Virus record (IMG/VR): IMGVR_UViG_3300032516_000007
Location: 51,042-115,041 of that record
Reading direction: 5' to 3' (one strand)
Origin: a virus
Length of the DNA: 64,000 nucleotides
Shown here piece by piece: positions 1,067 to 22,257 of this stretch (its first letter is position 1; each line of letters opens with the position of its first letter). The position numbers and the translations under genes are program-made. The notes under the pieces were generated by a model. It searched no databases. It saw only the letters and a list, made by a program, of their open reading frames with translations, and was not told the DNA's origin.

Positions 1067-1236
1067 TCAGGAAGTTGCCATTGCGTCCCATCATGAAGTC
1101 CAAGCTCACCTCTGATGGTGAGCGGGTACTTCAGATTCTCCAGAGGGAATATCAGATGGAGCGTGAGGCGGCGGTTCGTTTGATGAGAGATGGCGGGGCC
1201 ATGTTGGCCCTGGCTATTGTGACTCGGAGTCGATGA
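1063..1236 (+). CDS. small hypothetical protein (57 aa)
   Basis: MIRKLPLRPIMKSKL...TRSR*; exactly fills the gap with ATGA overlaps at both ends; below the track size cut-off. Confidence 0.6.
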   Translation: MIRKLPLRPIMKSKLTSDGERVLQILQREYQMEREAAVRLMRDGGAMLALAIVTRSR

Positions 1237-1958
1237 TGTTTCTTTTCGTAGCTATTCACAAAAGTATCTATCCTGAGAGTTTGTTCATCAGGAAGGGAGA
1301 AGAGGAGGGAACTCTTAACCTGCGTGTTTCCAAACCTCAGAAGGTAGCCACACCCCCAAAGGTTAAGCAGCCTCGTGCTCCGACTGTGGGTGTTCCCTCT
1401 CAGGAAGTTCAGAAGCCATCAGCATCCCATCTGGAGAAGGTGTCAACGCCTCACCATCAGGCTGCCCAAGCTGAAGCTCTCATGAGGATGTCAACTCATG
1501 AGTACCAACGAACGGGACGTATGCAACATGCTTTGAAGGCACAGCGTTCCCAGGCGACTCTAGATCATTTTGCTTCCCAAGGTGTTGTACCAACACCCCA
1601 GCATCATGCTGATTGGGTTGATCACTATGGGGAGCATTCAGATAAATATGCAGGATCAAAAGTTCCTGTTATGTCCCGGTCCCGGTGGCACAAGATTTCT
1701 GGTGGGATTGAGTTTTCAGGACATGAACACGAACAGAAGCCAGCTTGGACAGAAGCTCAGCTACAGGCGGCTACTGCTCCTAAGCCTGAACCCCTACCCG
1801 CTTCTGATATTGGATTTGAGAGACCTGAGAAGGTATCTCGTCCGGAGGTTCAGGAAACCATTGGGTACATGAAGAAGATTCACAGTTTCAAGAAGAGTCT
1901 CATCAATGCTTTGCTGTTAAAGGCATTGAACCTGAGAAGGAGCATTTTGAGTTATTGA
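1233..1958 (+). CDS. putative internal head protein, His/Pro-rich
   Basis: 241 aa; N-terminal SLFIRK|G and C-terminal FKK|S and LLK|A motifs. Confidence 0.55.
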   Translation: MMFLFVAIHKSIYPESLFIRKGEEEGTLNLRVSKPQKVATPPKVKQPRAPTVGVPSQEVQKPSASHLEKVSTPHHQAAQAEALMRMSTHEYQRTGRMQHALKAQRSQATLDHFASQGVVPTPQHHADWVDHYGEHSDKYAGSKVPVMSRSRWHKISGGIEFSGHEHEQKPAWTEAQLQAATAPKPEPLPASDIGFERPEKVSRPEVQETIGYMKKIHSFKKSLINALLLKALNLRRSILSY

Positions 1959-1971
1959 ACAGGAGTGGAAC

Positions 1972-2607
1972 ATGAGACCCGACATGATTAGCCCCCGACG
2001 GCTTCGTCCTGCTAGTGACGGTTCACACAGTGAGCCCTTGTTTCGGATGACCAGGGAAGATCCCCATCGAGTGCTCAAAGGGATTGTGATTCCCCAGACA
2101 GTGCGTGGTCAGGTCAATGGAGTGATGCCTGGGGCGTCGGCTCCCCCGAAACCTCAGCCCTCTCTGTGGGTGATGAGGAAAGCGGATCCATCTCAACAGG
2201 AGATGATCCCTGGGGGTCTGGCTTCTGGGAAGGCTGATACAGCTTTCGATCCTGAAGCTCTCAAGGTGGGGATGAAGGTTGAGCTGGAGCATTCAGGCAA
2301 CGCCAAGCTGGCTCGGGAGATTGCCAAAGATCATCTGACCGAGGACCCTGATTACTACAAGAAGCTGGCCAAGATGGAAGCCAAGAAGGCTATGGGTGGG
2401 TTGGTGACGAAGTCCAAGGAAATGGAGGGCAAGAAGAGAAGTTGGATGCCCCCCACCGAGTACAGTCCCGAAGCCTATGGGAAGCCTCCTCATCCAGAGG
2501 GTCATGGGTTCATCAGTGGTGAGCCAATCGAGAAGATCAAGGAAAGGTTGGCAAAGTTGCAACCTCACCGTCCGAAGGGTACAGGGCAATTCAACCTCGA
2601 CGATTAG
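1972..2607 (+). CDS. DUF5661-like domain protein
   Basis: FDPEALKVGMKVELEH...AREIAKDHLTEDPDYYKKLAKME matches the DUF5661 pattern; AGGAG RBS. Confidence 0.75.
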   Translation: MRPDMISPRRLRPASDGSHSEPLFRMTREDPHRVLKGIVIPQTVRGQVNGVMPGASAPPKPQPSLWVMRKADPSQQEMIPGGLASGKADTAFDPEALKVGMKVELEHSGNAKLAREIAKDHLTEDPDYYKKLAKMEAKKAMGGLVTKSKEMEGKKRSWMPPTEYSPEAYGKPPHPEGHGFISGEPIEKIKERLAKLQPHRPKGTGQFNLDD

Positions 2608-2624
2608 GATGTTGGTTCTAGAAC

Positions 2625-3533
2625 ATGCCGATTCTGACGAGGCAGCAAGTTGAGAAGCTTGCTGAGATCATTGACCAGCACACCACCTGGTTCGTCTGGC
2701 GAGCTTTCGGTTCCCAGTACGTCAAGAAAGAAGATCTAGACAAGCTGAAGGCTAGTGGACTCCTGCCTATGGATGTGCAGGTGTCCACGATCAAGAATGC
2801 CTACGTTTTGGGTCGGCTGGAATCTCTGCTCAAGGAAAACGATTTCAGGAAGTTGACCTGGGTTCAGCTCCAAGAGGCAGCCAAGGGTCGCTTTACCTCT
2901 GTTGACAAGTTCCAGATCGAAGCGGCTGAGATGAGTGCCTTTACGAAGTTTCGTGGATTGGCTGACGACATCAAGAGTCGTCTCTACGATCGTTTGGCTC
3001 AGGCGACGAACAGCACTGTGACTGAAGCTCATGTGCGAGGGACGATCAAGGACATTGTTAAGGTTGGGGTTGAACTCAGCCAATCCTTCCAGAAGGTGGC
3101 CAGAGAGTTGGTGGAGGAGCTGAAGGAACCAACTCGAAATTGGACTCGTGTGGCTGCCACGGAGCTTCACACAGCGTGGCAACGGGGTGTGGTCAACACG
3201 ATCATTCAGAAGGTAGATCTGTACGAGGATTCTGAGGGCATTGATAGCAACGTCTTTGTTGATCATGACGATGATGCCTGTGAGGACTGCAAGAGGATCT
3301 ACAACGATCCCAAGACTGGTCATCCCAAGATCATGAAGTTGAGAGACCTTCTCGAGAACGAGGGATCCAACTATCAACGGCCATGGCGTCAGAATGCTAA
3401 GCCGGTTGTCCCTCCTCTGCATCCCCACTGCTATGGGCGTGTGATCTATGTTCCCCCAGGTTGGGGGTTCAAGGATGATGGTACGTTCACTCTGATCGAT
3501 CCCAAGGAAGCTTACCCGGAGCTGAACGAATGA
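2625..3533 (+). CDS. MuF / SPP1 gp7-like minor head protein
   Basis: RVAATELHTAWQRG, DDDACEDC and PPLHPHC motifs typical of MuF. Confidence 0.8.
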   Translation: MPILTRQQVEKLAEIIDQHTTWFVWRAFGSQYVKKEDLDKLKASGLLPMDVQVSTIKNAYVLGRLESLLKENDFRKLTWVQLQEAAKGRFTSVDKFQIEAAEMSAFTKFRGLADDIKSRLYDRLAQATNSTVTEAHVRGTIKDIVKVGVELSQSFQKVARELVEELKEPTRNWTRVAATELHTAWQRGVVNTIIQKVDLYEDSEGIDSNVFVDHDDDACEDCKRIYNDPKTGHPKIMKLRDLLENEGSNYQRPWRQNAKPVVPPLHPHCYGRVIYVPPGWGFKDDGTFTLIDPKEAYPELNE

Positions 3534-6346
3534 ATCACTTCATCAGCAAGACTATTAGGTACTATCATCCTTACTTACCAACTCACACCCTTCGTAAGGC
3601 TGAAGAGCCCGGTGAGTTCCGTGGTGGGGACCCCGAGGAGATGCGTCTGAAGAAGGAAGAAAAGCAAACTGAGCTAGGTGAATCTGGGGATGCTGGAGAA
3701 GATCAGGGTGGGGAAGAGCCAGATCCTGCCGATGTGGAGGAGGCTCAGCAGGCAGATCAGGATAAGTCAGAAGGGAAATCTGTCAGTATTGGGAAAGCGA
3801 TTACCACAGCCATGGGTGCGGTTGAGGCTTCTCCATGGCCACCCAACACAACGGATTATCCTTCCAAGGATCGGAATGGTAATCCAGTTCATGACAATGT
3901 GGACTTTCACTTTCGTGGGGTCAAACAGCCCTGGATTGAAGTGGGTCCCCCTCGTCAGGGTCCCAATCAGAAGAAGCCCTGGTCAGAGGTTCTGGGTCTT
4001 CCCCCATTGATGGCTCCTTCTGGACCTCCCTATTGGCGTCAGAAGCTTCTACAGGAACGAAGGGATGAGCTTGGGATGAGTCCCAGACCCAGGCTCATCG
4101 AACCTACTGATATGTACGCTATGCAGTCTGTGGCAAAGGCTTTCGATGATCTTCTAGAGAAGGCAAAGGCGACGCTTGGCGGGGAGTCTGCTGAACACCA
4201 CCCATATATTCCTGGATATAAGGATAAGATCAAAACACCTGTTTCTTTGAATGTTGATAGCTTAGATCATGTTCCTGAGCATATAAATAAACATGTCTCT
4301 AAGATTGTTGGTCCTCATTGGAAAGATCATATTCATAGATATGTCAAAGAAGTTAACAGTGGGGAGGGTTTAAGTTTTACTCCTTCTCCTGTTCTTCGAG
4401 CTATGGAAGATTGGATGGGAGGTGGTGGTAAGTTTCCACATAAACGAGGGGCAGGGCAGGCTATTGTGTCCAATGATGTAAAAGCTTTGAATCATCTGAC
4501 ACAACGTGCAGGTCATGCTGGGTGGCATCGGTCTGGTGTAGTTGCTGGAGTTTTATCCAGGATGCCTTTGAATCATGAAGCTATCAAACATCAAACTGGT
4601 GGTAGTATTCCAACGCATCTTTATCGTGGTAGTATGTATGTTCCCCATGCGGCAAAGGTTGGTGATGTTTTTCATCTTTCTCCATCTTCATTTAGTTCCG
4701 GTAAACTTGTGGAGCCATTCAAAGACTATCCAGGGCTTATGAAGATGAGGTTACCGTCCAGAGGATTTAGTTTGGGTAATCACAGTTTGTGGCCAGAACG
4801 GGAGGTACTTGTTTCTGGTCATTATAGAATCCATAATATATCTTATCCTCGTGGTCGTACTATGTTTCATGTTGAAGAGATTCCTCATGGTGAAGTTAAT
4901 AAAGCTATTGAGAATCAATCTCAGCATGAAATGAACCAATTTATAGCTTCTCATCCTTCTGAGATGGTGTCTGCTAAAGGAGCAGAGGATATTGAGCATG
5001 TGGGGAGGGGACTTGGAAAGAGAATGGCTCCCTGTCCCTACGGAGGGGGAATCGAATGCCTTCGGCATGGTGGAGATGGTGCTGATGCTCATTACCCATC
5101 ATTCCACCATAAACATGAAGATCAATCCCTGAGTCACGAAGATGTTCTCCATCAGGAAGCTGGAAAAGATCCTGGGGAACGAACACATAGCCTTAACCAG
5201 ATGCAGAAGAAGGCTCTTGTTGGGCATGTGATGTCCAGGTACGAAAGTGAAGGTACAGATCTAGATAACCCTGATACAAGATCGAAGTACATGAAGACAC
5301 TTCGGCATATTCACGGTTATTTGGGTAAAGACGCAGAGTCAAACGCATGGAGAAAGAAAGCCATTTCGGAGTGGAAGTCCAAGATTAGTCAGTATCATGG
5401 TTCAGAGGATCAAAAGCCAGAGGGTCACCTGGCCATGGAAGCTGCTGAGAAGCAGATCGATGTGACTTGTGATTTTTCAAGGGAAGTCGGTTGGGGTTCT
5501 ACAGATAGTAAAGAGTCAGATCTTCCAGAGAAGATGTTGGAGCAAGCATTTGGTAGGCAAATGAGGATTAGTGACTTTGAGAGGGCGTATACTGTCGATG
5601 ATGATAATCTAAAACTTCCAACTCCTGATGGTGGATATGGGGCAAATATTCATCACATCAACATTGTCGAAAAGGAACAGGGCCAGTACGAGATCAATGT
5701 GATGGGGTCTATTGATTATAGTTATGGTGAGGGTAGTGAGCGGGCAGCTACATTCGTTCGAGTGATTCACTGTTCTGTTGGTGGTAAGAAGAAGCAAGAT
5801 CGTTTCATTATGGTTCACCATGACAAGATATTTGTGCTAGATGCTGATCATAGTAAGGTTGGTGGGCATCAGAACTCTGGATTGAGTACGGATTTTCTCA
5901 AGCATAGTGTTATTGAATACCAGAAATGGGGGGTTAATCAGATCACAACAAGTCCGCACTGGGTGGGTAAGTACACTTGGGCTCGAATGGGATTCCAGTG
6001 GAATGAGGAGGCTGCTGCCACTGTGGGTCGCCATATGACCAAATTTTTGATCAGTCATTATGGGATGGAGAAGAAGGCTGCTGCAAAATTGGCGGCTAAA
6101 TTTGCTGATATGCCATCCAGATTTGCTGTCAAGACGCTTTCTAATCCTCAATTGACTGAAGATGGTCAGGCATTGTTTAGATCTTTCGAGAAGAGCGAGT
6201 ACAGATGCAAGCCAGAGGAGGTTGGGAAGGCATTCCTTCTTAGTGATGGTGGTAACCAAGTTTGGATGAATGGGGGCATGGTGGACATGTCTCGGAAAAC
6301 CAGTCCTAGTTACCGTCAATTGAGGAAGTATCTGGGTTTGAAGTAG
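3530..6346 (+). CDS. polyvalent protein: R-S-E ADP-ribosyltransferase domain plus C-terminal GNAT acetyltransferase
   Basis: LYRG (~4619), SSFSS (~4685) and EREVL (~4796) form an ART triad; HQNSGLSTDFLK...WGVNQI...VGKYTWARMGF is GNAT-like. Confidence 0.7.
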   Translation: MNHFISKTIRYYHPYLPTHTLRKAEEPGEFRGGDPEEMRLKKEEKQTELGESGDAGEDQGGEEPDPADVEEAQQADQDKSEGKSVSIGKAITTAMGAVEASPWPPNTTDYPSKDRNGNPVHDNVDFHFRGVKQPWIEVGPPRQGPNQKKPWSEVLGLPPLMAPSGPPYWRQKLLQERRDELGMSPRPRLIEPTDMYAMQSVAKAFDDLLEKAKATLGGESAEHHPYIPGYKDKIKTPVSLNVDSLDHVPEHINKHVSKIVGPHWKDHIHRYVKEVNSGEGLSFTPSPVLRAMEDWMGGGGKFPHKRGAGQAIVSNDVKALNHLTQRAGHAGWHRSGVVAGVLSRMPLNHEAIKHQTGGSIPTHLYRGSMYVPHAAKVGDVFHLSPSSFSSGKLVEPFKDYPGLMKMRLPSRGFSLGNHSLWPEREVLVSGHYRIHNISYPRGRTMFHVEEIPHGEVNKAIENQSQHEMNQFIASHPSEMVSAKGAEDIEHVGRGLGKRMAPCPYGGGIECLRHGGDGADAHYPSFHHKHEDQSLSHEDVLHQEAGKDPGERTHSLNQMQKKALVGHVMSRYESEGTDLDNPDTRSKYMKTLRHIHGYLGKDAESNAWRKKAISEWKSKISQYHGSEDQKPEGHLAMEAAEKQIDVTCDFSREVGWGSTDSKESDLPEKMLEQAFGRQMRISDFERAYTVDDDNLKLPTPDGGYGANIHHINIVEKEQGQYEINVMGSIDYSYGEGSERAATFVRVIHCSVGGKKKQDRFIMVHHDKIFVLDADHSKVGGHQNSGLSTDFLKHSVIEYQKWGVNQITTSPHWVGKYTWARMGFQWNEEAAATVGRHMTKFLISHYGMEKKAAAKLAAKFADMPSRFAVKTLSNPQLTEDGQALFRSFEKSEYRCKPEEVGKAFLLSDGGNQVWMNGGMVDMSRKTSPSYRQLRKYLGLK

Positions 6347-6354
6347 GGTGATCT

Positions 6355-7647
6355 ATGCTTAATTTGTTCGATGATCTAATGAAGGCGGCCCGTCGGGTAT
6401 CTCCATTCCCCGTTCCTCAAGGAATGACCCATGGAGATGTGCTTCGTCATCAAGCAATACATGTTCACCGTGCCGGGGGTCTTCCATCCTCCAGGGAGCA
6501 TCGATTAGCTCTACAGGCGAAACCATCACCTCTTACATCGGAGCATGTGGCAGAAACAGTATCAAAGAATAAACTTCTTCATCCTAAACATGTAACAGCA
6601 TTGATTGATCATGCTCATGATCATTTTAGTAGATTGTTGAGGACGCCTGGAAGGATGAATGAAGAATCTTACCATAAGGTAATGGAAACTCTTGGTGATG
6701 CTGTTAATGTTGCTCATGAGACTAAGCACCCAAAAAGAAATTCATTAAGGAACTTGCAGGCCAAAGCAATTAGGAATCATGTTGGTTCTTATTCTTATCC
6801 AGTAGTAAATACTAGATTCAAAAATATGGAAGGTGTTGTTTCGCATGTTACTCCAAATGGTTGGGCAGAAGCTAGAGAGAATACTCCAGCACACAAGTCA
6901 ACTCTTGGTCATTACACTTTGCATAATGTATTCAAAGATAAAGTAAATGATGCTGATCATTATTTACATGATTCTTTTAAGATGGATCATCCAGACTATA
7001 CGTCTAAGGTTAACGATTCTGCTTTGGAATTTGAATCAGATATTAGTTCAAAAGAACATCAAAGACGGAGTATTCAAAGTACACATTCTTGGCCACATAG
7101 GGTAACTGTATCGGGGGATATCGTTCACCATAGTGGAGGTTTGATTGGTCAATTTAGTAGAACTTTTGGAAGAGATGTCAATGGTGATCTTCGTGTAAAT
7201 CATGATGGTCTGAGCTTAGATAAAGAACATCAGGGATATGGTATTTCTAAGGCTCTTATGAAATCATCATTGGAGCACTATAGACAGATGGGAGTTAAGA
7301 CTGTTCACGTTGGGCCAGCCGATGTTGGAAGATACACGTGGGCCAAGATGGGATTCCATTGGGGTGAAGATGGGACAAGGCATGTCAAAAGGACGTTACC
7401 AAAGTTCTTAGTGGAGCATGGAGAGGATCCCAAGTCTGCTCAAGAGATTACTGATAGGCATGCTGACAAGCCATGGGAGATAGCTTCTCTTCATATCGGC
7501 GGGAGGCATGTTGGGAAGAAGTATTTGTTAAGAGGAGATGTTTCTGGGCAGAGTGGACCATGGGGGTACACTGGAGGTTCTTTGGAGTTGCATCCCGATA
7601 ACCCTGGATACCAACATATCAGCAAATACGTTGGATTGAATAGGTGA
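6355..7647 (+). CDS. His-rich protein with C-terminal GNAT acetyltransferase
   Basis: EHQGYGISKALM (QxxGxG-type acetyl-CoA loop), then MGVKTVHV and VGRYTWAKMGF; paralogous to the preceding gene's C-terminus. Confidence 0.75.
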   Translation: MLNLFDDLMKAARRVSPFPVPQGMTHGDVLRHQAIHVHRAGGLPSSREHRLALQAKPSPLTSEHVAETVSKNKLLHPKHVTALIDHAHDHFSRLLRTPGRMNEESYHKVMETLGDAVNVAHETKHPKRNSLRNLQAKAIRNHVGSYSYPVVNTRFKNMEGVVSHVTPNGWAEARENTPAHKSTLGHYTLHNVFKDKVNDADHYLHDSFKMDHPDYTSKVNDSALEFESDISSKEHQRRSIQSTHSWPHRVTVSGDIVHHSGGLIGQFSRTFGRDVNGDLRVNHDGLSLDKEHQGYGISKALMKSSLEHYRQMGVKTVHVGPADVGRYTWAKMGFHWGEDGTRHVKRTLPKFLVEHGEDPKSAQEITDRHADKPWEIASLHIGGRHVGKKYLLRGDVSGQSGPWGYTGGSLELHPDNPGYQHISKYVGLNR

Positions 7648-7652
7648 ATTGA

Positions 7653-12824: not shown

Positions 12825-15800
12825 CCAGCTTGGTTTTGACTACCCCATCCCTGTAGGGGATGAGCTGATCAAGGGAAGTCGGCATTCCAAGACTCAACAG
12901 CATGCTTGGCAGAAACTTGTTCAAGCTGTGGCCAATATAAAAGGTGCTCCCAATATCGTAAGACTGAAGGCGGGTGAGGGAGGGTCTATCGACCTGGATG
13001 AGCTTGGTGCAGGTGAGGGGGCCTGGGTCACTCCTCATAGCGGTCCTGCTGCTGGTAGACACATTCTGGTAGTGAAGAGACCAAATGGTGATCTTGTTCT
13101 GCTGGGTGGTCTCAACAAGCCCAACACCAGGATCGATGACAAGACGGACAAAGAGTATCTGGTTGACGATCAAGGTCGTGATATCCGTGAGGCGTCTCCC
13201 GAGGACTACCTCTCAAATCTGGCTAAGAGACACTTTCCATTCAAAGCCAAAGAAAAGCCTACTTATGAGACTAAGAAAGAGAAGGAGCGTAAAGCAGAAG
13301 CTCAGGTTTTCGCTGAGCGAAAGGCGAAAGTTCGAGTTGAGTATAAGGGGGCTCGAAAAGTAGCTCGTAAGCTAGTCAAGGAGCATCACAAGAATCTTCG
13401 TGAAACTCTTGGTCTGGCTGAGGGAACAACTCTCAGCCAAAAGTCGGAAAACAAGATCAAAGATTCATTTGAAAAGGCTGCTGGGGACACCCTCAAAAGT
13501 CTTGGGGTTGAGATCGACAAGGATACCAAGAAGTACATTTCCGAATTTGCAAACCGTGCGACGGGTAGTTTCCGTCGAGAGCGAAGAAAGAAGATTGATA
13601 GAGTCGAGGAGACTATTCTTGACGCTGCCAAGAAGGGTGGGCAGGGCAAGGACATTGCAGGTCATTTGCAAAAGATTCGTCAGATTGCCAAACAGATCAA
13701 GATCAGTGCAGCTCCGGTTCAGGATATGCTCGAGGAGGGTCTTGACGCATTTCGGACTGGGGACATGGAGAAGGCCAATGAGATTCTCAAAAAGGCTGCT
13801 GATGCTGCGGTAGCTGCTTCCTTTGACCATGCAGAACAGGAGGCCATGAAAGAGGTTGAGGTCCCGTCTGAGGATGCCACATTGGGCAATCAGGGTAACG
13901 TACCCAGTGGTGGTACCGCTCCAGAAATGATCGATATGATCGACAAAGATCCTAATGCCACCACAGCTCCTTCTGGAATGGATTTCACAAAGGCTCTTTC
14001 TAGACTCAAGGGATCACATGAGCGGGAGAAGGAACGGAAGCGACAAGAGAAGGAGAAGAAGGTAACTCAGGTTCCTCAGTACGCTCAGGTGGATGCTGAG
14101 CCCGACTTCGAGACGGAGGCCGATCAGAAGGCTTTCTACGATCAGGTGGGTGAGGCTCAGAAGACTTTTGCGGCGGCTCGTGTTGCTCAAGATCGCGCCA
14201 GGGAGATGATCAACAAGATCTCTGAGGAGGCAGCCGCAGCCGGTGTTGAGGATCGTCCCAGGACGGCTGTGTCTCCAGAGGAGTTTGCTGTTTCGCTTCA
14301 GGATATCGAGACAGCAATGGCTTCAACTGGAGTGACCCCGAAAGAGATCAAGAAGGAGATGGCGCTTCTGGAAACGGCTCAGAACTACACTACTCCCAAT
14401 CAGCCTGGGATGTACACGGTCATCAATGAGTTTTGGAATGATCATTCTGGCAATCTTCTTGATCCCTACATGAGGATGGGTTCTGAGTATGCTTTGGCTG
14501 GTTTGCTGTCAACTCATCTACCCAAGGAGGTTTTGGAGACTCCAGAAGTGAGTGGACTTCTTGGTAAGATTGCTACCAAGGTTAAGCTGAATGAGAGGAC
14601 AAATCAGTTTGAGATTCCTGGTGGCAAATCATTGGTTCGGGTCAACTATGGAGGGCTTGTCCAGAGAACCTCTGCATCTGTTGCTCCGGTGATTGTGGCA
14701 CGTCGGCTGGCTCAACTGGCTAGCCGTGGGGAAATGGAGAAGGAGAAGATTGCGGAGATTGAAAGACGGCAGAAAGAAGAGAAGCTTTCTGTTCGTGAGC
14801 GAATGGAGTTAGGCAAGGAAGTGAAGCGGCTTCGGAATAGTCCATTTGCCAAGCATTTTGGCAATGAGGAATTTAGGAATCTGATCAACTCCGTTGAGAA
14901 GAATAACGCTGGGTGGTGGGAGGTAGACCCCTCTGGCCAGCAGATTCATCATCCATCGTCTCTCCTCTCCACAGAAGAAAAGGCAATGGAGGCTGATCGG
15001 AAGATTGCTACGCAGATTGAGTTGATTGAGGCACAAACAAAAACTGGTGAAATGCTGTCTTCAGAGGACAAATTGGGCATGGAGGGGGAGATCAATCCTC
15101 GTAGTAAACTTGGTAGAATGGTTCAGAAGGCAGAGGTTCTTGAGTCTCTGCGTCAGCGGCGTCAGGAGAACCTGGGTTTGGCTTTGGGATCTCTAGAAAC
15201 ATCAGCTACTCTCGCTGTAGCTCTGCATGAAGCCCATTTGAAAACCAGTGCTGCCAGGGCTGGCCTTACCAGGGTTCCGGAAGAGACCAGGACAGCTCAT
15301 CAGCTCAATACCGAAATCAACGATCTGAAATCTCAGATTATTGATCCTAAGCTTTCCTATAATGAGCAAAAGGCTTTGGGTAGGAGGGTGAGGGATCTAG
15401 AGAGCAGACTTGGGACTATTGTCAGCTCACCAACTATCCCTACCCATGATGATGTGAGGATCGATATTCCTGGACCTGTGAGTCATCCTGATCCAGATCA
15501 GCAATTACTTCTGAGGCAGACTCAGACGATTGCTGCACGAGATTATGCTCGGAATCAGTTGGGCCTCGATGAGTCTGAGATTCATGAAGCTGAGGGATCT
15601 GCTGTTGCAATACCAAGAGGTAAGCTAGCAGCTATTGGTATTGATAAAAATGGGGCTCATGTGAGGTTGCGGATCGGTGGTCCTCTTACCCCTGAAGATG
15701 TAGAGCGTGAAGCATCTGAAGCATCTGGGGGGAAGAAAAAGAAGAGGAAGGCACGGGGTATCATGGATAAGCTTCCTCGTATGGAAGCCCATCAGGTTTC

Positions 15801-18288
15801 TCAGGATCTATATTCTGAGATCAAAAAGAATAGAGAATTGCCCACTGAAAAAGATCATCCAAAGCTCATGAGGTCTGTTCGTAGATCAGACCCAGATATG
15901 CCACTTAGAATGAGGTTGTCTCAGTTCAATTCGTTCAACTTCATGCGAAAACCAAAGATGTTTGATGAGAATGGAAAACCCATCAGAGGATCAAAGGGTG
16001 GGTTGAATACGATGGTTACGGGTGGTGGCAAGACATTGGCTGCGTTTCTCAACATCGCTGACAATGTTCAGCGTGGAGAACACATGAATTATGTGCTCTC
16101 TGTTCCCAACGACAAAGTTCAGGACTGGGTGAGAGAAGCTTGGGACAAGACTGAGTTCCACACAGTTGGCAAGCTTGAAGAGAGGGTGAATAAGGACACT
16201 GGTAAGAAGGAGAAGATCCCTCCGAAGCGAGATGCTTTGACCAGGGAGTTAGAGACTGCTCTCAAAGAACAAGGTGGTGGCAAGAATCCAACCCCAATCG
16301 TGATTGCTGTTCCTGATGGTATCTCGATGGCTCATGGCTATGGTATTAAGGGGTGGGGTAAGGAACAACAGCATGAGTTTTTCAAGAAGATTAGAGATCT
16401 TATTCGGGACAACGGTGGGATTGAAAAGAGAAACATCATCTTTGTGACGAACCATAACACGGATGGCAACATCCATGCAGAACTGACCAAAACACAGGTG
16501 AAACTTCGTACGGGTTGGGGTCATCAGTACGCTCAAGGGGGCTTTATGGCAGGTGGTCCAAGAGACCAAGCGAAAGAAGGAGATCGTATAGATCATCTTT
16601 CTCAGTTGGGAGTTCGTGGTCGGATTGTGGATGAGCCCCAGGTTTTGCTCTCAACGGGAGAGACAAGTAACCGAGGAGCAGAGGGTAAGCGGATTCTCTC
16701 TAGTAGCCATCCAATGGAATACCGACAATTACTGACAGCAACTCCCGCTCGTCGTCAGCTTGTGGAGGCTTATGATGCAGTGAAGTGGGTTGCCAGCACT
16801 CCTCAGATGGATGAAAAGGGAAACTACCTAAGACATATCAAGAAGGATGGAAGTTCAGGTGCCCATTTATATCACAAGATTGATGGGCTACCCACTAGAG
16901 GGGATTTCATGTCCCAGATGGGCGGTCTTGGGCGTGGTACTTTTACGCATGAGCATCTTCTGGAGGAGGAAGCTCGAAACATGATCGCCAATTGGAATAT
17001 TGGCGATGAACAACGTGAGCGGCACTTTGCACAACATGTGTTTGATCATTCGGCCCCAAGATCTGAGACTCAGAAGCAACGACAAATAGAGATTGAACAT
17101 AATGCTCGTAATATTGTGCGGAGAGAGCTGGAGAAAGAAGCCATTGATCAAAAGAAGCCAGTCGATAAGCTTGGCAAGATAGAAGAAGCCAATGCTAAAG
17201 CACGAGCCCTTCAATACATAGAGGCAGAGCACCGACAGAACATTCATGGACCGGGAGTGGTTCGCGGTGAGGGTGGAGAGGTCGTGAGGAGGACTACGAA
17301 GGAGGCTGGTGTTACTCAGTTGCCTAGAGTCAATGTTGCCGATTGGAAGCACAATTCTAAGATCAATTCTATGATTCACCAATTGAAGCAATCTGTGGAG
17401 GAAGCTCAGAAGAAAGGTAAAACACATCAGACAGTGATTGTGGTGGATGGTCCCGATCAAGCTGCGGCTGCCAGGGAAGCTTTGAGGACCGTCTACCCAC
17501 CTCTCGATATTATTGATCCTAAAACTGGGAGGAAAGATCCTTTGCACAAGAAGGCACAGATTGGTTGGTTGGGAGCAATGTTGTCAGGACAGGGATCGAA
17601 GCGGCCTTCTCCCACTGAGATCGATATCGCAAAGAAGAAGTTCGAGGAGGGTGATCTGCAAGCTCTGATCATTGATAAGAAAACAATTCAGGGTCACGAT
17701 CTTCAGATGGCAGACTCCCTTCACATGCTCACACACCTTGATGATGCAGGTACGTTGAAGCAGGCTCATGGGCGTGTGGATCGTTCTCCCAGAAAAGTAA
17801 GAGACGAATCAGAGATCAACAAAGATCTCCTTCACATCATCCGTTCTGACCCCCGTGGCAAGCCTTCGGCTTTGGTGAGGAGATCTATCAGGGATGCCTT
17901 CAATGATGCCCACAAGAAACATCCTGACATATTCCCAGAAGGGCAGGATGTGGGAACTCTTCCGAATGGGGAGATCAAAAAGCTCCTTAATGCTTATCGC
18001 CAGTACGATCACAATGAGTGGCAAGATCTAATGTTGCATTCGGGAGTGTTCACCGAGACTCCCATGGATCTGCACAACTACACCACTTCAGATTCTCCTC
18101 ACGATCAAAAGTTGGAGGAGGATATTGCTCGTGGGTTGGGAACCCAGAGGGTGACATCTCCAGAGTTGATGAAGCCCCCAACCACCCAGCAGGCTGTCAA
18201 GCATGAACCATCTGGGGAGGTGAGCAAAGGTTTGCTCCCCATGTACATTCCATGGAATGAGCCTCTCTCTTTGTTTGTGAGGGACTAA
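12670..18288 (+). CDS. giant polyvalent protein with SF2/SNF2-like helicase
   Basis: Walker A TGGGKT, motif II IVDEPQ, III LTATP, V GHDLQMAD, VI QAHGRVDR; long charged N-terminal half; start uncertain (12670 or 12796). Confidence 0.75.
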   Translation: MMSNRLPSLIVLDSKVVNLIKGLMGSPSPQSLRTTPTSTLTSMEIESLLKSDQLGFDYPIPVGDELIKGSRHSKTQQHAWQKLVQAVANIKGAPNIVRLKAGEGGSIDLDELGAGEGAWVTPHSGPAAGRHILVVKRPNGDLVLLGGLNKPNTRIDDKTDKEYLVDDQGRDIREASPEDYLSNLAKRHFPFKAKEKPTYETKKEKERKAEAQVFAERKAKVRVEYKGARKVARKLVKEHHKNLRETLGLAEGTTLSQKSENKIKDSFEKAAGDTLKSLGVEIDKDTKKYISEFANRATGSFRRERRKKIDRVEETILDAAKKGGQGKDIAGHLQKIRQIAKQIKISAAPVQDMLEEGLDAFRTGDMEKANEILKKAADAAVAASFDHAEQEAMKEVEVPSEDATLGNQGNVPSGGTAPEMIDMIDKDPNATTAPSGMDFTKALSRLKGSHEREKERKRQEKEKKVTQVPQYAQVDAEPDFETEADQKAFYDQVGEAQKTFAAARVAQDRAREMINKISEEAAAAGVEDRPRTAVSPEEFAVSLQDIETAMASTGVTPKEIKKEMALLETAQNYTTPNQPGMYTVINEFWNDHSGNLLDPYMRMGSEYALAGLLSTHLPKEVLETPEVSGLLGKIATKVKLNERTNQFEIPGGKSLVRVNYGGLVQRTSASVAPVIVARRLAQLASRGEMEKEKIAEIERRQKEEKLSVRERMELGKEVKRLRNSPFAKHFGNEEFRNLINSVEKNNAGWWEVDPSGQQIHHPSSLLSTEEKAMEADRKIATQIELIEAQTKTGEMLSSEDKLGMEGEINPRSKLGRMVQKAEVLESLRQRRQENLGLALGSLETSATLAVALHEAHLKTSAARAGLTRVPEETRTAHQLNTEINDLKSQIIDPKLSYNEQKALGRRVRDLESRLGTIVSSPTIPTHDDVRIDIPGPVSHPDPDQQLLLRQTQTIAARDYARNQLGLDESEIHEAEGSAVAIPRGKLAAIGIDKNGAHVRLRIGGPLTPEDVEREASEASGGKKKKRKARGIMDKLPRMEAHQVSQDLYSEIKKNRELPTEKDHPKLMRSVRRSDPDMPLRMRLSQFNSFNFMRKPKMFDENGKPIRGSKGGLNTMVTGGGKTLAAFLNIADNVQRGEHMNYVLSVPNDKVQDWVREAWDKTEFHTVGKLEERVNKDTGKKEKIPPKRDALTRELETALKEQGGGKNPTPIVIAVPDGISMAHGYGIKGWGKEQQHEFFKKIRDLIRDNGGIEKRNIIFVTNHNTDGNIHAELTKTQVKLRTGWGHQYAQGGFMAGGPRDQAKEGDRIDHLSQLGVRGRIVDEPQVLLSTGETSNRGAEGKRILSSSHPMEYRQLLTATPARRQLVEAYDAVKWVASTPQMDEKGNYLRHIKKDGSSGAHLYHKIDGLPTRGDFMSQMGGLGRGTFTHEHLLEEEARNMIANWNIGDEQRERHFAQHVFDHSAPRSETQKQRQIEIEHNARNIVRRELEKEAIDQKKPVDKLGKIEEANAKARALQYIEAEHRQNIHGPGVVRGEGGEVVRRTTKEAGVTQLPRVNVADWKHNSKINSMIHQLKQSVEEAQKKGKTHQTVIVVDGPDQAAAAREALRTVYPPLDIIDPKTGRKDPLHKKAQIGWLGAMLSGQGSKRPSPTEIDIAKKKFEEGDLQALIIDKKTIQGHDLQMADSLHMLTHLDDAGTLKQAHGRVDRSPRKVRDESEINKDLLHIIRSDPRGKPSALVRRSIRDAFNDAHKKHPDIFPEGQDVGTLPNGEIKKLLNAYRQYDHNEWQDLMLHSGVFTETPMDLHNYTTSDSPHDQKLEEDIARGLGTQRVTSPELMKPPTTQQAVKHEPSGEVSKGLLPMYIPWNEPLSLFVRD

Positions 18289-18530
18289 TGGCACACGAAA
18301 AAGTCAAAGAGGCTCTCGCGGAGAACACAGCGCAGATGAAGGTGCTGGCTGATCGGTATGTGGCGATTTGGGCTAGGGCAGGACGAGAGATCGAGGCTGA
18401 AAAAGAAAAGCCAGTTCCATCTCAGTGGAAGATCGAAGCTATGAAGAGGATGCAGGAAAGGGTTGAGGAGAAGATTGCACAGTTCAAGGGAGCAGATCGA
18501 CTTGCCGATGACCAGCCAAAGGAGTTTTAG
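18288..18530 (+). CDS. hypothetical protein
   Basis: 80 aa helical ORF translationally coupled to the upstream gene. Confidence 0.7.
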   Translation: MAHEKVKEALAENTAQMKVLADRYVAIWARAGREIEAEKEKPVPSQWKIEAMKRMQERVEEKIAQFKGADRLADDQPKEF

Positions 18531-18775
18531 TGGATCATCTCCTGTCGTGCCGGTGTGGTGAAGTGCTGGTCAAATCCATGAGTGATGGCACCACAAAGGT
18601 AAGGTCCAAGATTATCATTTTTCGAGGTGGGGAAGCCTTTGCTGTCTGCAAAGGGTGTGGGGCTGAGAGGTTAGTTCCTCTTCAATTAGTCCCCGATGCC
18701 TTGGAGAAGGGATCTCGCCGACCCAAGCTTTTTGTGAGTGAAAACAAGAAGCTGGACCCCACAGACCTTCCGTAG
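18530..18775 (+). CDS. small zinc-ribbon protein
   Basis: CRCG ... CKGCG; AAGGAG RBS; contains LVK|S and LEK|G motifs. Confidence 0.65.
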   Translation: MDHLLSCRCGEVLVKSMSDGTTKVRSKIIIFRGGEAFAVCKGCGAERLVPLQLVPDALEKGSRRPKLFVSENKKLDPTDLP

Positions 18776-18808
18776 TCGATCCACCGCTACCCCCCTGATC
18801 GAACATGC

Positions 18809-18837
18809 TTGACACTTGATTCTAGAACCAGTAGTTT
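18809..18837 (+). promoter_or_regulatory. sigma70-type promoter with TTCTAGAA in the spacer
   Basis: TTGACA-17 nt-TAGTTT, intergenic, upstream of the protease gene. Confidence 0.6.
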
Positions 18838-18868
18838 CATCCTGACGATCAACCTGAAGGAACTCCAC

Positions 18869-18902
18869 AAAGGGAGATGGGCATGAGCCCCTCTCCCTTT
18901 TT
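18869..18902 (+). terminator. intrinsic terminator-like hairpin in the protease gene leader
   Basis: AGGGAGATGGGC-ATGA-GCCCCTCTCCCT followed by a T run. Confidence 0.6.
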
Positions 18903-18914
18903 GCGTTTGGGACT

Positions 18915-19796
18915 ATGATCTTAGATCTCCTCAAAAGCAACGAGTTTGAGTTCTGGCTTCCCCTGGACATTTGCAAGTCCAATGGGAAGGCTGATCCAAC
19001 GAAGCGTTGGGTCCAGGGACTTGCCTCTACAGAAGATCGAGATCTTCAGGATGAGGAAGTCTTTCAGCGTGGGATCGACTTCAGTTACTTCCTAGAGCAT
19101 GGCTACTACAACAATGATCATAAGCTTGGGTTCGAGAACAAAGTTGGCCAGCCTGTAGAAGCTAAGATCACTCCTGAGGGTTTTTGGACCAAGGGGTTCT
19201 TGTTCCAGAACCACAAAGTAGCTGATGCGATTTGGGAGCTGGCTCACGCACTGATCACCTCAGGTGCGATTCGTCGTCTTGGCTTCTCTATTCAGGGGAA
19301 GGTTCTGAGACGAGCAGGAAAGCGCATTCTGAAGTGTTGGGTTCAAGATGTTGCGATCACCGCTGCTCCGATCAATACCCACACCTGGTTGGACGTTGTG
19401 AAGTCCCTCTCAGCCGTTCCGGCTGAGATGTGGTGTGAGAGTGAGAGCGGGCTACTGATGCCTGAGGATGTGGCTACTTCGATCCCCTGTGTCAAGTCTT
19501 GTGGGGGTGGTTGCTGCAAGAGCGAAAATAAAGCTCTCCGTCAGGAAGATCTTAACCTCTTCAAGAAGAGAGATGAGGAAGAGGAAGAAGCCAAGGCTCT
19601 GTCCATTGGGTATGGACATCCCATGGCTCCAGAGAGCTTGGACAGCGAAGTCAAGCGGCAGACGTTTGGCAAGTCGATCCCGGAAATTCTCAACTTCCGT
19701 GACTGCGTGTACCTTCTTCAGGACACACGGGGTCTTTCAAAATCTGAAGCAACAACGTTGACTGAGGCGATCTTCGCAATGAACGAAGTGAACTGA
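18915..19796 (+). CDS. prohead (capsid maturation) protease
   Basis: VQGLASTEDRDLQDE, GIDFSYFLEHGYYNNDH, LGFSIQG, VAITAAPIN motifs; located before scaffold and capsid genes. Confidence 0.9.
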   Translation: MILDLLKSNEFEFWLPLDICKSNGKADPTKRWVQGLASTEDRDLQDEEVFQRGIDFSYFLEHGYYNNDHKLGFENKVGQPVEAKITPEGFWTKGFLFQNHKVADAIWELAHALITSGAIRRLGFSIQGKVLRRAGKRILKCWVQDVAITAAPINTHTWLDVVKSLSAVPAEMWCESESGLLMPEDVATSIPCVKSCGGGCCKSENKALRQEDLNLFKKRDEEEEEAKALSIGYGHPMAPESLDSEVKRQTFGKSIPEILNFRDCVYLLQDTRGLSKSEATTLTEAIFAMNEVN

Positions 19797-19833
19797 TGGT
19801 CATCAACCGAAACTCAACCGGAGGGAACTGAAG

Positions 19834-20778
19834 ATGTCGAAGATGACGAAGCATGACTTCTTCAAGTCTCTGGAAAGGTTGGAGGCACTTGCCGGTGGCA
19901 GCGGTGACGAAATGCGGAAGTCGCAGATTGTCACTGGTGGCAACAGTGAGGTCTCCTCCTGGCCAGGTGGCGAGAAGGAAAAGATCGGGGACAACTGGGA
20001 CGACAGCATCGGTGAGGACGGAACCGACTACAAGGCCCAGAAGGTTCGGAAGAGCATCATCGAGAAGGTTGCGAAGGGTATTGCTCTGTCCCCCTCCGAG
20101 GTGGAGATCCTCAAGGGTGACATGGACCGAGCTGAGCCCTTCGGTGGCAAAGAGTCTCCTGAGGAAGAGGAGGCCGAAGAGGAAGCCAAGGAGAAGACCA
20201 AGGGCAAGCGTCGTCCTCCCCCCAAGGAAGAGGAGGACGAGGACGAGGGAGCCAAGGGCAAGCTTTTTGGCAAGTCATTCACCGACGTTCTCTCTGAGAA
20301 CGATACGGTCCAGAAGGGTGTCGAGGTGTCGGACTTCCTCACTGAGTTTGCCAAGTCCTTTGGGCATGGTCTCGATCACCTGGAGTCCCGGATCACGGAG
20401 CGAGTGGTTGGGACCGTCATGGGTGCCCTTCAGCAGTTTGCTGGGGAGCAGGGGAACTTCAACAAGTCCCTCGCCGAGGCGGTGGTGAACATCGGTCATG
20501 GTCTCGCTGGCTACATTCAGCAGGATGCAGCTCGGAGCGAGGAGCCTGCGGGTCCCCCGAAGTCTCAGCTTCGGACGGTTCCTGGTCAGGTGAATGTGCT
20601 TCAGAAGAGCCAGGGTGGTGGTCCGTTCGAGGGCATGAGCAAGGCTCAGGTTCTTGATCGGATGACTGATCTGGTGGAGAAGGGCGGTCTCAATCCCCTG
20701 GAGGTGGTGAAGTACGAGTCCACGGGAGAGATGTCGCCTCACATCGAACAGAAGCTCATGAAGAGCATGGGGCAGTAG
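19834..20778 (+). CDS. capsid scaffolding protein
   Basis: Between protease and capsid genes; charged and helical; 13 hydrophobic-x-K|[AGS] motifs. Confidence 0.75.
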   Translation: MSKMTKHDFFKSLERLEALAGGSGDEMRKSQIVTGGNSEVSSWPGGEKEKIGDNWDDSIGEDGTDYKAQKVRKSIIEKVAKGIALSPSEVEILKGDMDRAEPFGGKESPEEEEAEEEAKEKTKGKRRPPPKEEEDEDEGAKGKLFGKSFTDVLSENDTVQKGVEVSDFLTEFAKSFGHGLDHLESRITERVVGTVMGALQQFAGEQGNFNKSLAEAVVNIGHGLAGYIQQDAARSEEPAGPPKSQLRTVPGQVNVLQKSQGGGPFEGMSKAQVLDRMTDLVEKGGLNPLEVVKYESTGEMSPHIEQKLMKSMGQ

Positions 20779-20808
20779 CCCCTCAACCCCAGACACAGGA
20801 GAAAGATC

Positions 20809-22257
20809 ATGTTTGGACAGATCAGCCTGCGTCACTACGAGGGGCTCAACGGTTTCGGGACTGCTCCCGCCCAGGACGTGTCAGAGTTGCACAAGGCGTT
20901 GGAGGCTGGCTATCAGGTGACTGGCCAGACCGGCGGCTCTGCACTCAGGGTGGAAAGTCTTGAGGCCAGCCTCAAGGTGGTGACGTGGACAAACCATCAC
21001 ATCAAGTTCTGGAAGAAGATTCCGAAATCGCCAGCATTTTCGACGGTTGAGGAATACAATGAGCTAGTTTCCTACGGAGGAACGAATTTCGCCTTTACGC
21101 AAGAAGGCGAACTTCCTCCTTCGACGGATACGAACTACGCTCGTCGTACCCAGCTCGTGAAATTCCTTGGGACCACTCGTGAAGTGAGCCACCCGGCCAC
21201 GATGATTCATCCCGCCCACGGGGATGTGATCGCACTCGAAAACTCGAACGGCATTCTCTGGCTGCTCGAGAGGGTTGAAACGGCTCTCTTCACCGCTGAT
21301 TCCGCGCTCGCTTTCGATGGTGAGGCTGAGCAGTGGGATGGTCTCGATGCTCTGATCGATGGCACCTCCTACGTCGATCTGGAGGGACAGCCTCTCCAGG
21401 AAGCGGACGTGGAAGAGGCCAGCAACATCCTTGTCGAGCACTTTGGTTACCCGACGGATCTGTTCTTGGGAACCCGTGAGCTGAGTGATCTTGTCAAGAC
21501 GATGTATCCTCGCGAGCGCGTGGCTCTGCCCGCTCCCGTGAATGGGGTCATCGGACAGGCAATCAACTCCATGGCAACCCAGGCTGGTACCATCGAGTTC
21601 AACCCCAACGTCTTCGTCAAGCGTCTTCCTCGTCCGCCCGCGTCGGCAACGCACGCCAATGCTCCTGCGACTCCGCAGGTCGTGGCGGGTCTTTCCAGTG
21701 CTGGTGGTACGGCTCTTGATGGTGACTTCAATAAGGGAGCCCCAGCGGGGACCAACTACCTCTGCTACGTTTGCACAGCGTGCAATCGTTTCGGAGAGTC
21801 GTCTCCTTCTCCGGTCATGGGCGCAGCGGTGACGATGATTCAGGCAAACAAGGACGCCAACGAGCACATCGATCTCACGCTGACCAACGCTGCAACCATC
21901 GGAGCTTTCCCTCCCGAGTTCTTCCGTGTGTACCGTACCGTCTCCAGGACTGCGGCTGCGGTTCCTGCTGATCTGGCACTGTACAGCATGATCATGCAGG
22001 TGCCTGCTGCTCTCCAGGGTGGTGGTCAGGTTACCACTCCTGATGACGTGAACTTCCTGCTGCCCTTCACCAGCCTTGCTTACATGGGAGAGCTGACTCC
22101 GCAGGTGATCACGTTCCGGCAGCTTGCTCCGATGATGCGTCTAGATCTCGCGGTGCTTGCTCCTGCCTACAGGTGGATGATCATGCTTTACGGAACGCCC
22201 ATCCTGTTCGCTCGGAAGAAGTGGCTGCGTATGATCAACATCGGTCGTCTCACGTAG
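20809..22257 (+). CDS. major capsid protein (Herelleviridae-like)
   Basis: ELHKALEAGY...GSALRVESLEASLKVVTW, STVEEY, QLAPMMRLDLA, ILFARKKWLRMINI resemble Twort/A511 capsid proteins; strong codon bias. Confidence 0.92.
   Translation: MFGQISLRHYEGLNGFGTAPAQDVSELHKALEAGYQVTGQTGGSALRVESLEASLKVVTWTNHHIKFWKKIPKSPAFSTVEEYNELVSYGGTNFAFTQEGELPPSTDTNYARRTQLVKFLGTTREVSHPATMIHPAHGDVIALENSNGILWLLERVETALFTADSALAFDGEAEQWDGLDALIDGTSYVDLEGQPLQEADVEEASNILVEHFGYPTDLFLGTRELSDLVKTMYPRERVALPAPVNGVIGQAINSMATQAGTIEFNPNVFVKRLPRPPASATHANAPATPQVVAGLSSAGGTALDGDFNKGAPAGTNYLCYVCTACNRFGESSPSPVMGAAVTMIQANKDANEHIDLTLTNAATIGAFPPEFFRVYRTVSRTAAAVPADLALYSMIMQVPAALQGGGQVTTPDDVNFLLPFTSLAYMGELTPQVITFRQLAPMMRLDLAVLAPAYRWMIMLYGTPILFARKKWLRMINIGRLT

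Follow-up and report, generated by a model that had tools for sequence, protein, structure and literature searches.

The DNA considered here is a stretch of 64,000 nucleotides (hereafter the window), positions 51,042 to 115,041 of the IMG/VR virus record IMGVR_UViG_3300032516_000007, and makes up the right-hand part of a single 115,041-bp contig. Judged from its genes, the source would be an uncultured SPO1-like (Herelleviridae-like) myophage, and the window appears to hold most of an enlarged head module. Between the portal gene and the prohead protease gene this module carries a block of genes, several of them for large multi-module proteins with enzyme domains. A short motif recurs in them, [LIVMF]-x-K-[AGS], that also fills the scaffolding protein and ends the capsid propeptide; a cut is proposed after the lysine, at the point marked ↓. 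The block is called the cargo block after the role predicted for it. A first-pass annotation of the same DNA had placed between positions 1233 and 22257 a set of packaged polyproteins that the prohead protease would cut at this motif into free enzymes.

Layout of the head module

A major capsid protein (MCP), portal, protease and scaffold of Herelleviridae type are all present (phrog_752, phrog_12, phrog_1028 and phrog_15087), and in tblastn comparisons the head proteins are 40-45% identical to those of SPO1 and YungSlug. The MCP is 40-44% identical to the MCPs of SPO1, CP-51, YungSlug and other Herelleviridae, the portal about 41%, and the protease, at 40-45%, has the same His/Ser dyad. The portal gene lies outside the window, at genome positions 45100-47052, where tblastn with the SPO1 and YungSlug portals located it in agreement with PF04860 and phrog_12. 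In SPO1, YungSlug and A511 the prohead protease gene directly follows the portal gene, whereas here the pair is split by about 23 kb holding some 15 co-directional, tightly packed genes, and the protease starts only at genome position 69956. A gap of about 23 kb also occurs in L006 and L007 and a shorter insert in L008, three metagenomic relatives. The range 1233-18288 singled out by the first-pass annotation is the larger part of this insert, and the module extends past it: its start, at the portal or at the preceding 802-aa gene, lies 4-8 kb outside the window on the upstream side. The 115-kb contig is 15-35 kb shorter than the genomes of cultured phages whose capsid proteins are homologous (130-150 kb), and the smaller genome makes spare head volume for protein cargo possible; no terminal repeat was found in the contig, which may be incomplete. 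A promoter and terminator scan of window positions 1-20000 gave sites no more numerous than in shuffles. The genes described below between positions 382 and 22257 lie on the plus strand, and coordinates are those of the window unless genome positions are named.

The prohead protease (18915-19796; phrog_1028, 3.4e-47) has His69 and Ser125 (GFSIQG, in the pattern GFS[IV][QE]G) invariant in eight aligned sequences that include SPO1, YungSlug, A511 and four relatives; a PDB sequence search with it returned nothing useful. It bears candidate sites of its own, namely MILDLLK↓S as its leader (18927-18938), ICK↓S (18969-18980) and, at the end of the catalytic domain, VVK↓S (19395-19406), which are kept in three to four of four relatives. 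The last of these is shared by four metagenomic relatives, SPO1 and YungSlug, and reads FMK↓S in A511. The scaffolding protein that follows (314 aa, 19834-20778; phrog_15087) contains exactly the 13 sites that the first-pass annotation had read in it, against 1.9 expected, with 13 of its 31 lysines used in this way; outside a charged patch, nearly every lysine precedes Ser, Gly or Ala and has a hydrophobic residue two places earlier. These sites are kept as motifs in four relatives, 11-13 of the 13 at 41-51% identity. Other scaffolds are similarly loaded (11 sites in SPO1 with 1.2 expected, 14 in YungSlug with 1.6 expected, 14-15 in the four metagenomic relatives), and the motif is a family-wide signature of SPO1-like scaffolds, A511 excepted.

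The MCP (20809-22257; phrog_752, 1.4e-88) has its propeptide site at LHK29↓A (20887-20898), likewise as annotated earlier. L-x-K↓A closes the propeptide here and in the relatives, as it does in SPO1 and YungSlug (LNK↓A in both). For A511, whose capsid protein the first-pass annotation held to be matured at K↓S, the sequence record does annotate a mat_peptide after ...QEDALK↓S, at the position aligned with LHK29↓A. Scaffolds full of the motif and capsid propeptides ending in K↓A or K↓S are features shared with the SPO1-like head module as a whole.

Enrichment, placement and conservation of the motif

Expected motif counts were taken from within-protein, composition-preserving residue shuffles. 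For the comparison with tail genes that the first-pass annotation had proposed, the 15 open reading frames (ORFs) between portal and protease contain 61 motifs against 31.2 expected (z 5.8), and the downstream structural proteins 43 against 39.4 (z 0.6). The range 1233-18288 alone has 38 against 22.4. Sorted by P1' residue, the portal-to-protease ORFs hold 29 K↓A sites (10.4 expected) and 17 K↓S sites (9.3 expected); K↓G, at 15 against 11.5, is not enriched. Protease, scaffold and MCP together have 21 motifs against 4.1 (z 8.9), and early proteins 40 against 47.1 (z -1.2). Control motifs with Arg or Glu at P1, or with a non-small P1', show no enrichment. The cargo ORFs of the relatives are enriched as well (L006, 40 against 19.7, z 5.0; L007, 49 against 28.9, z 4.0; L008, 27 against 9.9, z 5.6), with the Arg and Glu control motifs and the downstream ORFs flat. 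Since enrichment persists after correction for lysine content and tail proteins are flat, the objection that motif frequency might be no higher than in tail proteins fails. All 15 upstream sites listed in the first-pass annotation were recovered at their nucleotide positions and in their ORFs when recomputed from the ORF starts.

Conservation points the same way. Of 106 aligned cases in the cargo proteins, taken from relatives of ≤52% identity, 63 retain the motif (59%); for control motifs the figure is 98 of 395 (25%; Fisher 4.6e-11). Homology breakpoints between relatives, which are not mutually independent, fall within 6 aa of a motif site in 20 of 55 cases, with 5.8 expected. What is established is that the motif is enriched and conserved, that it lies in linkers and that it coincides with the breakpoints of module shuffling; in the cargo genes it is under selection at N-terminal leaders and module joints.

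The leaders are the most telling pattern, half of which the first-pass annotation had seen. Most proteins of the insert start with one; it is about 7-25 residues long, hydrophobic and acidic, and ends in Leu, Ile, Val, Met or Phe, any residue and Lys, followed by Ala or Ser. Counted from the first start codon, they occur in 8 of 20 head-module ORFs and 5 of 115 ORFs elsewhere (Fisher 4.7e-5), and with alternative starts allowed in 12 of 20 and 10 of 115 (9e-7); the earlier observation that the motif follows short leaders upstream thus holds. Besides the protease they are carried by the scaffold (...HDFFK↓S), the portal (MMPGVDYSAIQK↓S), a 692-aa protein (MFLTSGQLYDLLSK↓A) and four proteins named here by the first nucleotide of their genes: 1233 (MMFLFVAIHK↓S), 3530 (...THTLRK↓A), 6355 (MLNLFDDLMK↓A) and 8416 (MMLPLWIDLVK↓A). 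The portals of SPO1 (MDFLESLSK↓A) and YungSlug (MAGFFNRLAK↓A) begin in the same manner, and the leaders recur in L006-L008 orthologues and in database homologues.

Internal sites are best seen in the 8416 protein, a predicted cargo polyprotein of 1138 aa (8416-11832) that matches Pfam TopoIB (2.1e-23) and InPase PF18823 (2.4e-37), and whose start codon is supported by L005. Its leader site (8440-8451) is followed by an N-terminal module of about 600 aa, the double site VAK↓AIGILSK↓G (10237-10269), topoisomerase IB (TopIB), VSK↓A (11368-11379), InPase and MLK↓S (11788-11799). Twelve full-length homologues were found, 47-74% identical. The motif is kept at residue 11 of the leader in 12 of 12 homologues, at residues 610 and 617 before TopIB and at 987 between TopIB and InPase in 13 of 13 each, and at 1127 after InPase in 11 of 13, with P3 and P2 varying freely at all five sites; motifs within the TopIB domain are kept in only 1-7 of the 13. 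Lysine gives five such conserved columns, and 14 control motifs built in the same way give 0-1. In an AlphaFold2 model (mean pLDDT 63.9) all five conserved sites lie in segments of pLDDT below 50 (residues 1-21, 606-628, 982-991 and 1127-1138; low residues make up 27.6% of the chain), and the non-conserved sites 773, 821 and 856 fall inside modelled helices or strands or at their ends. The five conserved sites are therefore placed by the model in low-confidence linkers, not buried in folded domains, the outcome that would have spoken against the earlier proposal.

Foldseek recovers TopIB and pyrophosphatase folds from this model, its matches being dominated by TopIB. The first-pass annotation had read VAK↓A 10243 and LSK↓G 10264 as a joint between a sigma factor and TopIB; the two sites do stand before TopIB, as fully conserved as the TopIB/InPase joint it had also named, but the sigma-factor reading is weak, with profile matches of the N-terminal module to sigma region 2 at E 0.008-0.02 only. 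At least two unrelated effector domains, TopIB and InPase, thus share one chain with the N-terminal module, and among the cargo proteins the combination of modules changes in L006-L008, P0005 and P0065. Homologues of the 8416 protein also carry PF04233 MuF, PF18763 and other polyvalent-type domains, and an InPase domain is part of a portal of solved structure (9b41_L, E 3e-24) and of PHROGs whose annotation reads minor head or virion protein. The homologue P0005 (1532 aa) has a SAM-lyase-like domain (PF23780) added to its TopIB/InPase chain.

The 3530 protein (938 aa, 3530-6346) is predicted to be a cargo polyprotein from its conserved sites and module content. Its leader (residues 1-23) ends in LRK↓A (3590-3601), kept in 5 of 5 homologues, and module A (residues 24-211) includes IGK↓A (3788-3799), kept in 6 of 6. 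The joint VAK↓AFDDLLEK↓A (4130-4165), both sites of which are kept in 5 of 5 homologues, leads into an ADP-ribosyltransferase (ART)-like module (residues 212-458), which is closed by VNK↓A (4895-4906), kept in the 3 of 3 ART holders. Module C (residues 459-938) has a Cys-rich stretch, a GNAT-like part and VGK↓A (6221-6232), kept in 5 of 5. The earlier claim that LEK↓A 4160 and VNK↓A 4901 bracket the ART-like module is borne out: sites bracket it in all three holders, with VNK↓A, ISK↓G or VHK↓S following, and the module is missing directly after LEK↓A in P0058 and P0059 and replaced by a different insert in P0061. The module starting AEEPGEFRGGDPEE is always preceded by the motif, after a short leader or internally (residue 154 in P0060, residue 169 in P0062). 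P0065 starts with a leader followed by the ART-like module and VHK↓S; next come another leader-like peptide, with FFK↓A at its end, and a homologue of the 692-aa protein, whose own N-terminus is this internal leader (SDELEEFFK↓A).

For the ART-like module, an atlas feature search gave PF03496 in 22 of 30 matches (score 0.95), and R/S/E-like motifs are present (HLYRGS, SPSSFSS and EREVLV). P0065 shares YR.S, SFSS and EVLVSG, though not the first Glu of ExE. Pfam and PDB sequence searches with the module or the whole 938-aa protein gave no useful match, phmmer against 1.84 billion representatives found one relative only, P0065, and an AlphaFold2 model from a two-sequence alignment was unusable (pLDDT 36.9). 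In YungSlug, the gene next before the portal (L002 6094-8703) encodes an 869-aa protein annotated as 'PARP polymerase', which lacks a leader and is not enriched in the motif (4 sites, 97 Lys).

Other genes of the cargo block

Most cargo proteins have no Pfam or PHROGs match even at E 0.5. At the left end of the window, a 156-aa protein (382-852) has four motifs against 0.39 expected (p<0.001), of which VAK↓S (448-459) and IHK↓A (613-624) are both kept in 3 of 3 relatives, and the 81-aa protein that overlaps it (821-1066) has VVK↓A (887-898), also kept in 3 of 3. The 241-aa protein (1233-1958) starts with a double leader, MMFLFVAIHK↓SIYPESLFIRK↓G (sites 1254-1265 and 1287-1298); its relatives have leaders at a similar position, ...GTLVK↓A in L006 and ...KLWK↓ALPK↓G in L007. 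In the 211-aa DUF5661 protein (1972-2607; PF18905, 1.7e-13), VLK↓G (2071-2082) is kept in 2 of 2 relatives, and MRK↓A (2173-2184) stands at a module breakpoint, residues 1-67 and 74-129 belonging to different proteins in L006 and L007. The motif of MRK↓A 2179, a site proposed earlier, is not kept in the one relative aligned there, despite this breakpoint.

A 302-aa protein (2625-3533) is a candidate minor head protein of the MuF/SPP1 gp7 type, 62-66% identical in relatives, and has neither motif nor leader in this genome, nor a leader in any relative. The assignment draws on a weak match to phrog_2468 head morphogenesis (E 0.0048) and a C-terminal PPLHPHCYG read by eye; no match to PF04233 was found at E<=0.5. 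The 430-aa protein (6355-7647) has its leader site at 6376-6387 and a C-terminal GNAT-like domain (weak Pfam, E 5e-4). Its L007 orthologue begins MDLFIDLMK↓A, and its two in-domain motifs are not conserved. Neither motif nor leader is present in the very acidic 251-aa protein encoded next (7653-8408), which has 8 Lys and could be DNA-mimic-like or serve to balance charge; in L006 and L007 its C-terminal piece is found joined to other modules.

A two-module protein of 331 aa (11829-12824) joins a SAM-lyase-like domain (PF23780, E 2.9e-5) to an acidic C-terminal module across VLK↓A (12441-12452). In L007 the halves lie in separate proteins and the SAM-lyase-like domain forms part of a 1233-like protein; in L006 the C-terminal half is attached to the TopIB/InPase protein. 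VLK↓A 12447, kept in 2 of 2 relatives, therefore coincides with a module split as the first-pass annotation would have it; LLK↓S 12817, which it had listed too, is kept in the closest relative only. The 331-aa gene and the helicase gene downstream overlap by about 150-235 nt in four genomes (window 12589-12824, L004 1297-1472, L005 4852-5081, L007 15277-15428). Both frames look conserved at the protein level, which could reflect dual coding or a programmed frameshift fusing the two proteins.

The large helicase protein (12670-18288) has about 1870 aa, or 1899 aa from the longest start at 12589, and a C-terminal helicase of SNF2/ResIII type, assigned by an atlas score of 0.97 for SNF2/ResIII and a weak Pfam DEAD/ResIII match. 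A query of 1830 aa found no protein match in cultured-phage records and nothing useful in a PDB sequence search and a viral-contig scan. The N-terminal propeptide site LIK↓G (12865-12876) is kept in 4 of 4 relatives and the C-terminal VSK↓G (18220-18231) in the one aligned; the eight interior motifs are not conserved at 49-52% identity. Because only one N-terminal and one C-terminal site are conserved, the protein is not a polyprotein, its interior motifs being chance occurrences. The earlier claim thus stands for the sites LIK↓G 12871 and VSK↓G 18226, but not for a polyprotein cut at many points. Between the helicase gene and the protease, just upstream of the latter in all relatives, lies a gene for an 81-aa zinc-ribbon protein (18530-18775), with LVK↓S (18566-18577) kept in 4 of 4 relatives and VCK↓G within a CxxC motif.

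Further motif-rich genes lie outside the window or beyond the head module. An 802-aa Pro/Lys-rich low-complexity protein is encoded upstream of the portal (genome 42695-45103; L003 2695-5103). It contains 10 motifs where 3.4 are expected (p 0.002), may start with a leader (MRLSLIK↓A) and has a conserved C-terminal site but no family match; the cargo block may begin with it, before the portal. Directly after the portal (genome 47028-49388; L003 7028-9388), a 786-aa low-complexity Pro/Lys-rich protein has 13 motifs against 4.8 expected, several of them conserved and five in a C-terminal cluster of CxxC zinc-ribbon repeats. Between virion structural and sheath genes, a lysine-rich protein of 194 aa (35061-35645; phrog_16819) has six motifs against 1.3 expected (p 0.001), including ISK↓A at residues 20-23 near the N-terminus and IGK↓S near the C-terminus, and may be a further protease substrate outside the head module.

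Proposed prohead processing and its alternatives

Taken together, the genes are read as follows: the enzymes encoded between portal and protease are probably head cargo, tagged by leaders, cut in the capsid by the prohead protease and delivered with the DNA, a reading that is favoured without being secure. The leader would mark proteins as components of the prohead interior and would be taken off by the predicted lysine-specific serine protease (His69/Ser125). The same protease would cut the conserved unstructured joints of the 938-aa and 1138-aa proteins, and probably also those of the 331-aa and 786-aa proteins; joints are often double sites enclosing a leader-like spacer. Cutting would free ART-like, GNAT-like, TopIB, InPase pyrophosphatase and SAM-lyase-like modules, which would be retained in the capsid and pass into the host together with the DNA, and the large helicase protein would shed terminal peptides only. 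Of the packaged polyproteins cut into free enzymes that the first-pass annotation had envisaged, the 938-aa and 1138-aa proteins with their conserved joints are retained, while the 1899-aa protein is not, nor is the linkage to MuF: the MuF-like gene here is separate, motif-free and unlinked to polyvalent proteins. From sequence patterns we infer the identity of the cutting protease, packaging, cleavage and injection, and likewise a function in host takeover or anti-defence.

A bolder extension, which is plausible but doubtful, is that the leader serves as both capsid-targeting tag and protease recognition element, and that 'leader + module' cassettes were concatenated into polyvalent proteins that a separate prohead protease, not an in-cis peptidase, dismantles in the head. 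If polyvalent proteins are such concatenations, double sites enclosing leader-like spacers are to be expected.

Several observations weigh against the cargo reading. Roughly half of the upstream motif instances are attributable to chance and half are excess. P1' differs by substrate, being mostly Ser in scaffolds and mostly Ala in cargo, and a score of flanking residues (P6-P4, P2 and P2'-P4'), trained on 53 scaffold sites, barely separated cargo from control sites (Mann-Whitney p 0.048) and was dropped. Several conserved motifs stand in CxxC zinc-ribbon contexts (the C-terminus of the 786-aa protein and VCK↓G of the 81-aa protein) and may be structural. The module also includes motif-free proteins, namely the MuF-like protein of 302 aa, the acidic one of 251 aa and one of 80 aa. 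The lysine specificity of the protease is read from the patterns of scaffold and capsid sites together with a single annotation in A511, a phage whose scaffold is not enriched (2 motifs, 1.5 expected) and whose capsid site has Ala at P3, with the hydrophobic residue at P2 instead. The ART identity is tentative, drawing on a language-model match and short motifs only, and a search of cultured-phage records gave no DNA match to the protease-MCP region.

The proteins might instead lose only their leaders, or bear them as mere targeting tags, the internal motifs being relics of gene fusion and the chains acting intact like the N4 virion RNA polymerase. Internal joints do resemble leaders without Met (AFDDLLEK↓A beside the 6355 leader, and the internal leader of P0065), the 1899-aa protein keeps terminal sites only, and some polyvalent proteins are delivered unprocessed (Iyer et al., PMC5512222). 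Relics should decay, however; in homologues of about 49% identity the motif survives at the joints in 11-13 of 13, with P3 and P2 free to change. The joints also lie in exposed unstructured linkers, expected to be within reach of a protease that trims leaders, and leader removal alone is considered unlikely. A fate of destruction is less probable again: the proteins, whether accessory parts of the core or scaffold or late enzymes of the cytoplasm, would be cut, then broken down and expelled at maturation like the scaffold, not delivered. The densest motif load is indeed found in the scaffold, which is normally destroyed, and the low-complexity 786-aa and 802-aa proteins are motif-rich too. Against this, the interiors of the TopIB, InPase, GNAT-like and helicase modules are free of conserved sites, which lie at module edges only and therefore fit release, not destruction; InPase, ART and helicase domains are moreover typical of virion-delivered proteins (PMC5512222; 10.64898/2026.04.20.719267).

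It is also improbable that another protease, of the host or an unrecognised one of the phage, cuts the motif, or that the motif has a non-proteolytic role such as docking or helix-capping. The indirect reading of protease specificity, the shift from Ser to Ala at P1' and the zinc-ribbon instances would suit such an account, but the same motif ends the capsid propeptide at the maturation position annotated in A511 and is found on the portal, at the ends of the protease itself and in the scaffold of several SPO1-like phages. Scans of the module for another peptidase domain found none: the cargo proteins gave no Pfam match to peptidase families at E up to 0.5, and HExxH occurs only as isolated strings outside any domain, none convincing. 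A chance or composition effect of Lys-rich and Ala-rich proteins was tested and is not supported, which leaves it barely credible. The raw motif density of the cargo genes, 0.5-0.9 per 100 aa, is near the prediction for 8% lysine, and 31 of the 61 instances are expected by chance; yet the excess survives composition-preserving shuffles with the internal controls flat and is repeated in three relatives, and conservation well above that of control motifs, linker placement and the match with homology breakpoints speak against coincidence.

Cargo processed by a prohead protease is a kind already known, and the system described here would be a lysine-specific variant of the processing of T4 and phiKZ type. 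As in the present genes, T4 IPI-III and Alt have an N-terminal leader of about 10 residues that ends in the cleavage motif of the prohead protease, and the T4 cargo includes an ADP-ribosyltransferase. Besides its cargo, the T4 protease gp21 takes the scaffold apart by cutting at many places and processes both the capsid protein and itself (PMC3012670, PMC9026906 and PMC5512222). The T4 motif, however, ends in Glu (L/I-x-E) where the present one ends in Lys (hydrophobic-x-K↓A/S), and here, in an SPO1-like phage, the cargo is large, multi-module and shuffled between relatives, with targeting by the leader predicted. In phiKZ and SPN3US, many head proteins bear propeptides or are divided into several fragments, with a single consensus for the head protease, and ejection protein is packaged in quantity with the DNA (PMC5694885, PMC7411985 and PMC10052503). 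A head-protease motif that recurs on multiple proteins of the head module is common to both, whereas the 115-kb genome, the SPO1-like head module, the motif and the protease lineage set the present case apart, as do recognisable enzymes that form exchangeable cassettes and are known from genes alone.

Polyvalent proteins are the other point of reference. These multi-enzyme proteins are encoded beside portal, MuF and head genes and have extensively shuffled modules, and packaging followed by injection has been predicted for them (Iyer, Burroughs, Anand, de Souza and Aravind, 2017, PMC5512222). The same source assigns their processing to in-cis zincin (MPTase) domains and notes assemblin-like peptidases only at some C-termini; GNAT is mentioned in it only as a neighbour of, or fusion to, related InPase domains, and TopIB appears in a reference title only. 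The InPase domain, the putative ART domain and the neighbourhood of head genes (the portal/MuF-like/protease block) are shared with the present genes, but no in-cis peptidase was found here, and the joints carry the motif of the separate prohead protease. An in-cis peptidase is common in the polyvalent family, though not obligatory. Large helicase-containing proteins encoded with or near head genes have parallels as well. Virion proteins of this kind occur in the P1 Dar system (DarB, DdrB and others; PMC9024508 and PMC12810830), and the helicase Lvh of the Thermus phage Lalka27a is a virion-associated SF2 helicase of 1715 aa encoded among structural genes (10.64898/2026.04.20.719267); both are thought to counter host defence after injection. 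Incorporation into the virion would here go by a leader with a protease site, in contrast to the partners of DarA/Hdf type in those systems. Three features look undescribed in the literature searched: a motif of lysine type, the splitting of portal and protease in an SPO1-like head module, and the 'leader + module' cassette grammar for polyvalent-type enzymes.

If the cargo reading is true, it joins the prohead-protease processing of T4 and phiKZ-like phages with polyvalent proteins, whose processing has until now been ascribed to built-in metallopeptidases. The leader and the K↓A/S joints would then amount to a sequence rule for capsid cargo and its cut points in an uncultured SPO1-like clade, covering topoisomerase IB, pyrophosphatase, an ART-like enzyme, acetyltransferase-like modules and a large helicase, and the leader would suggest a tag for loading foreign proteins into SPO1-like phage heads. 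Should the cassette reading hold too, it would provide a readable grammar for predicting virion cargo across SPO1-like phages.

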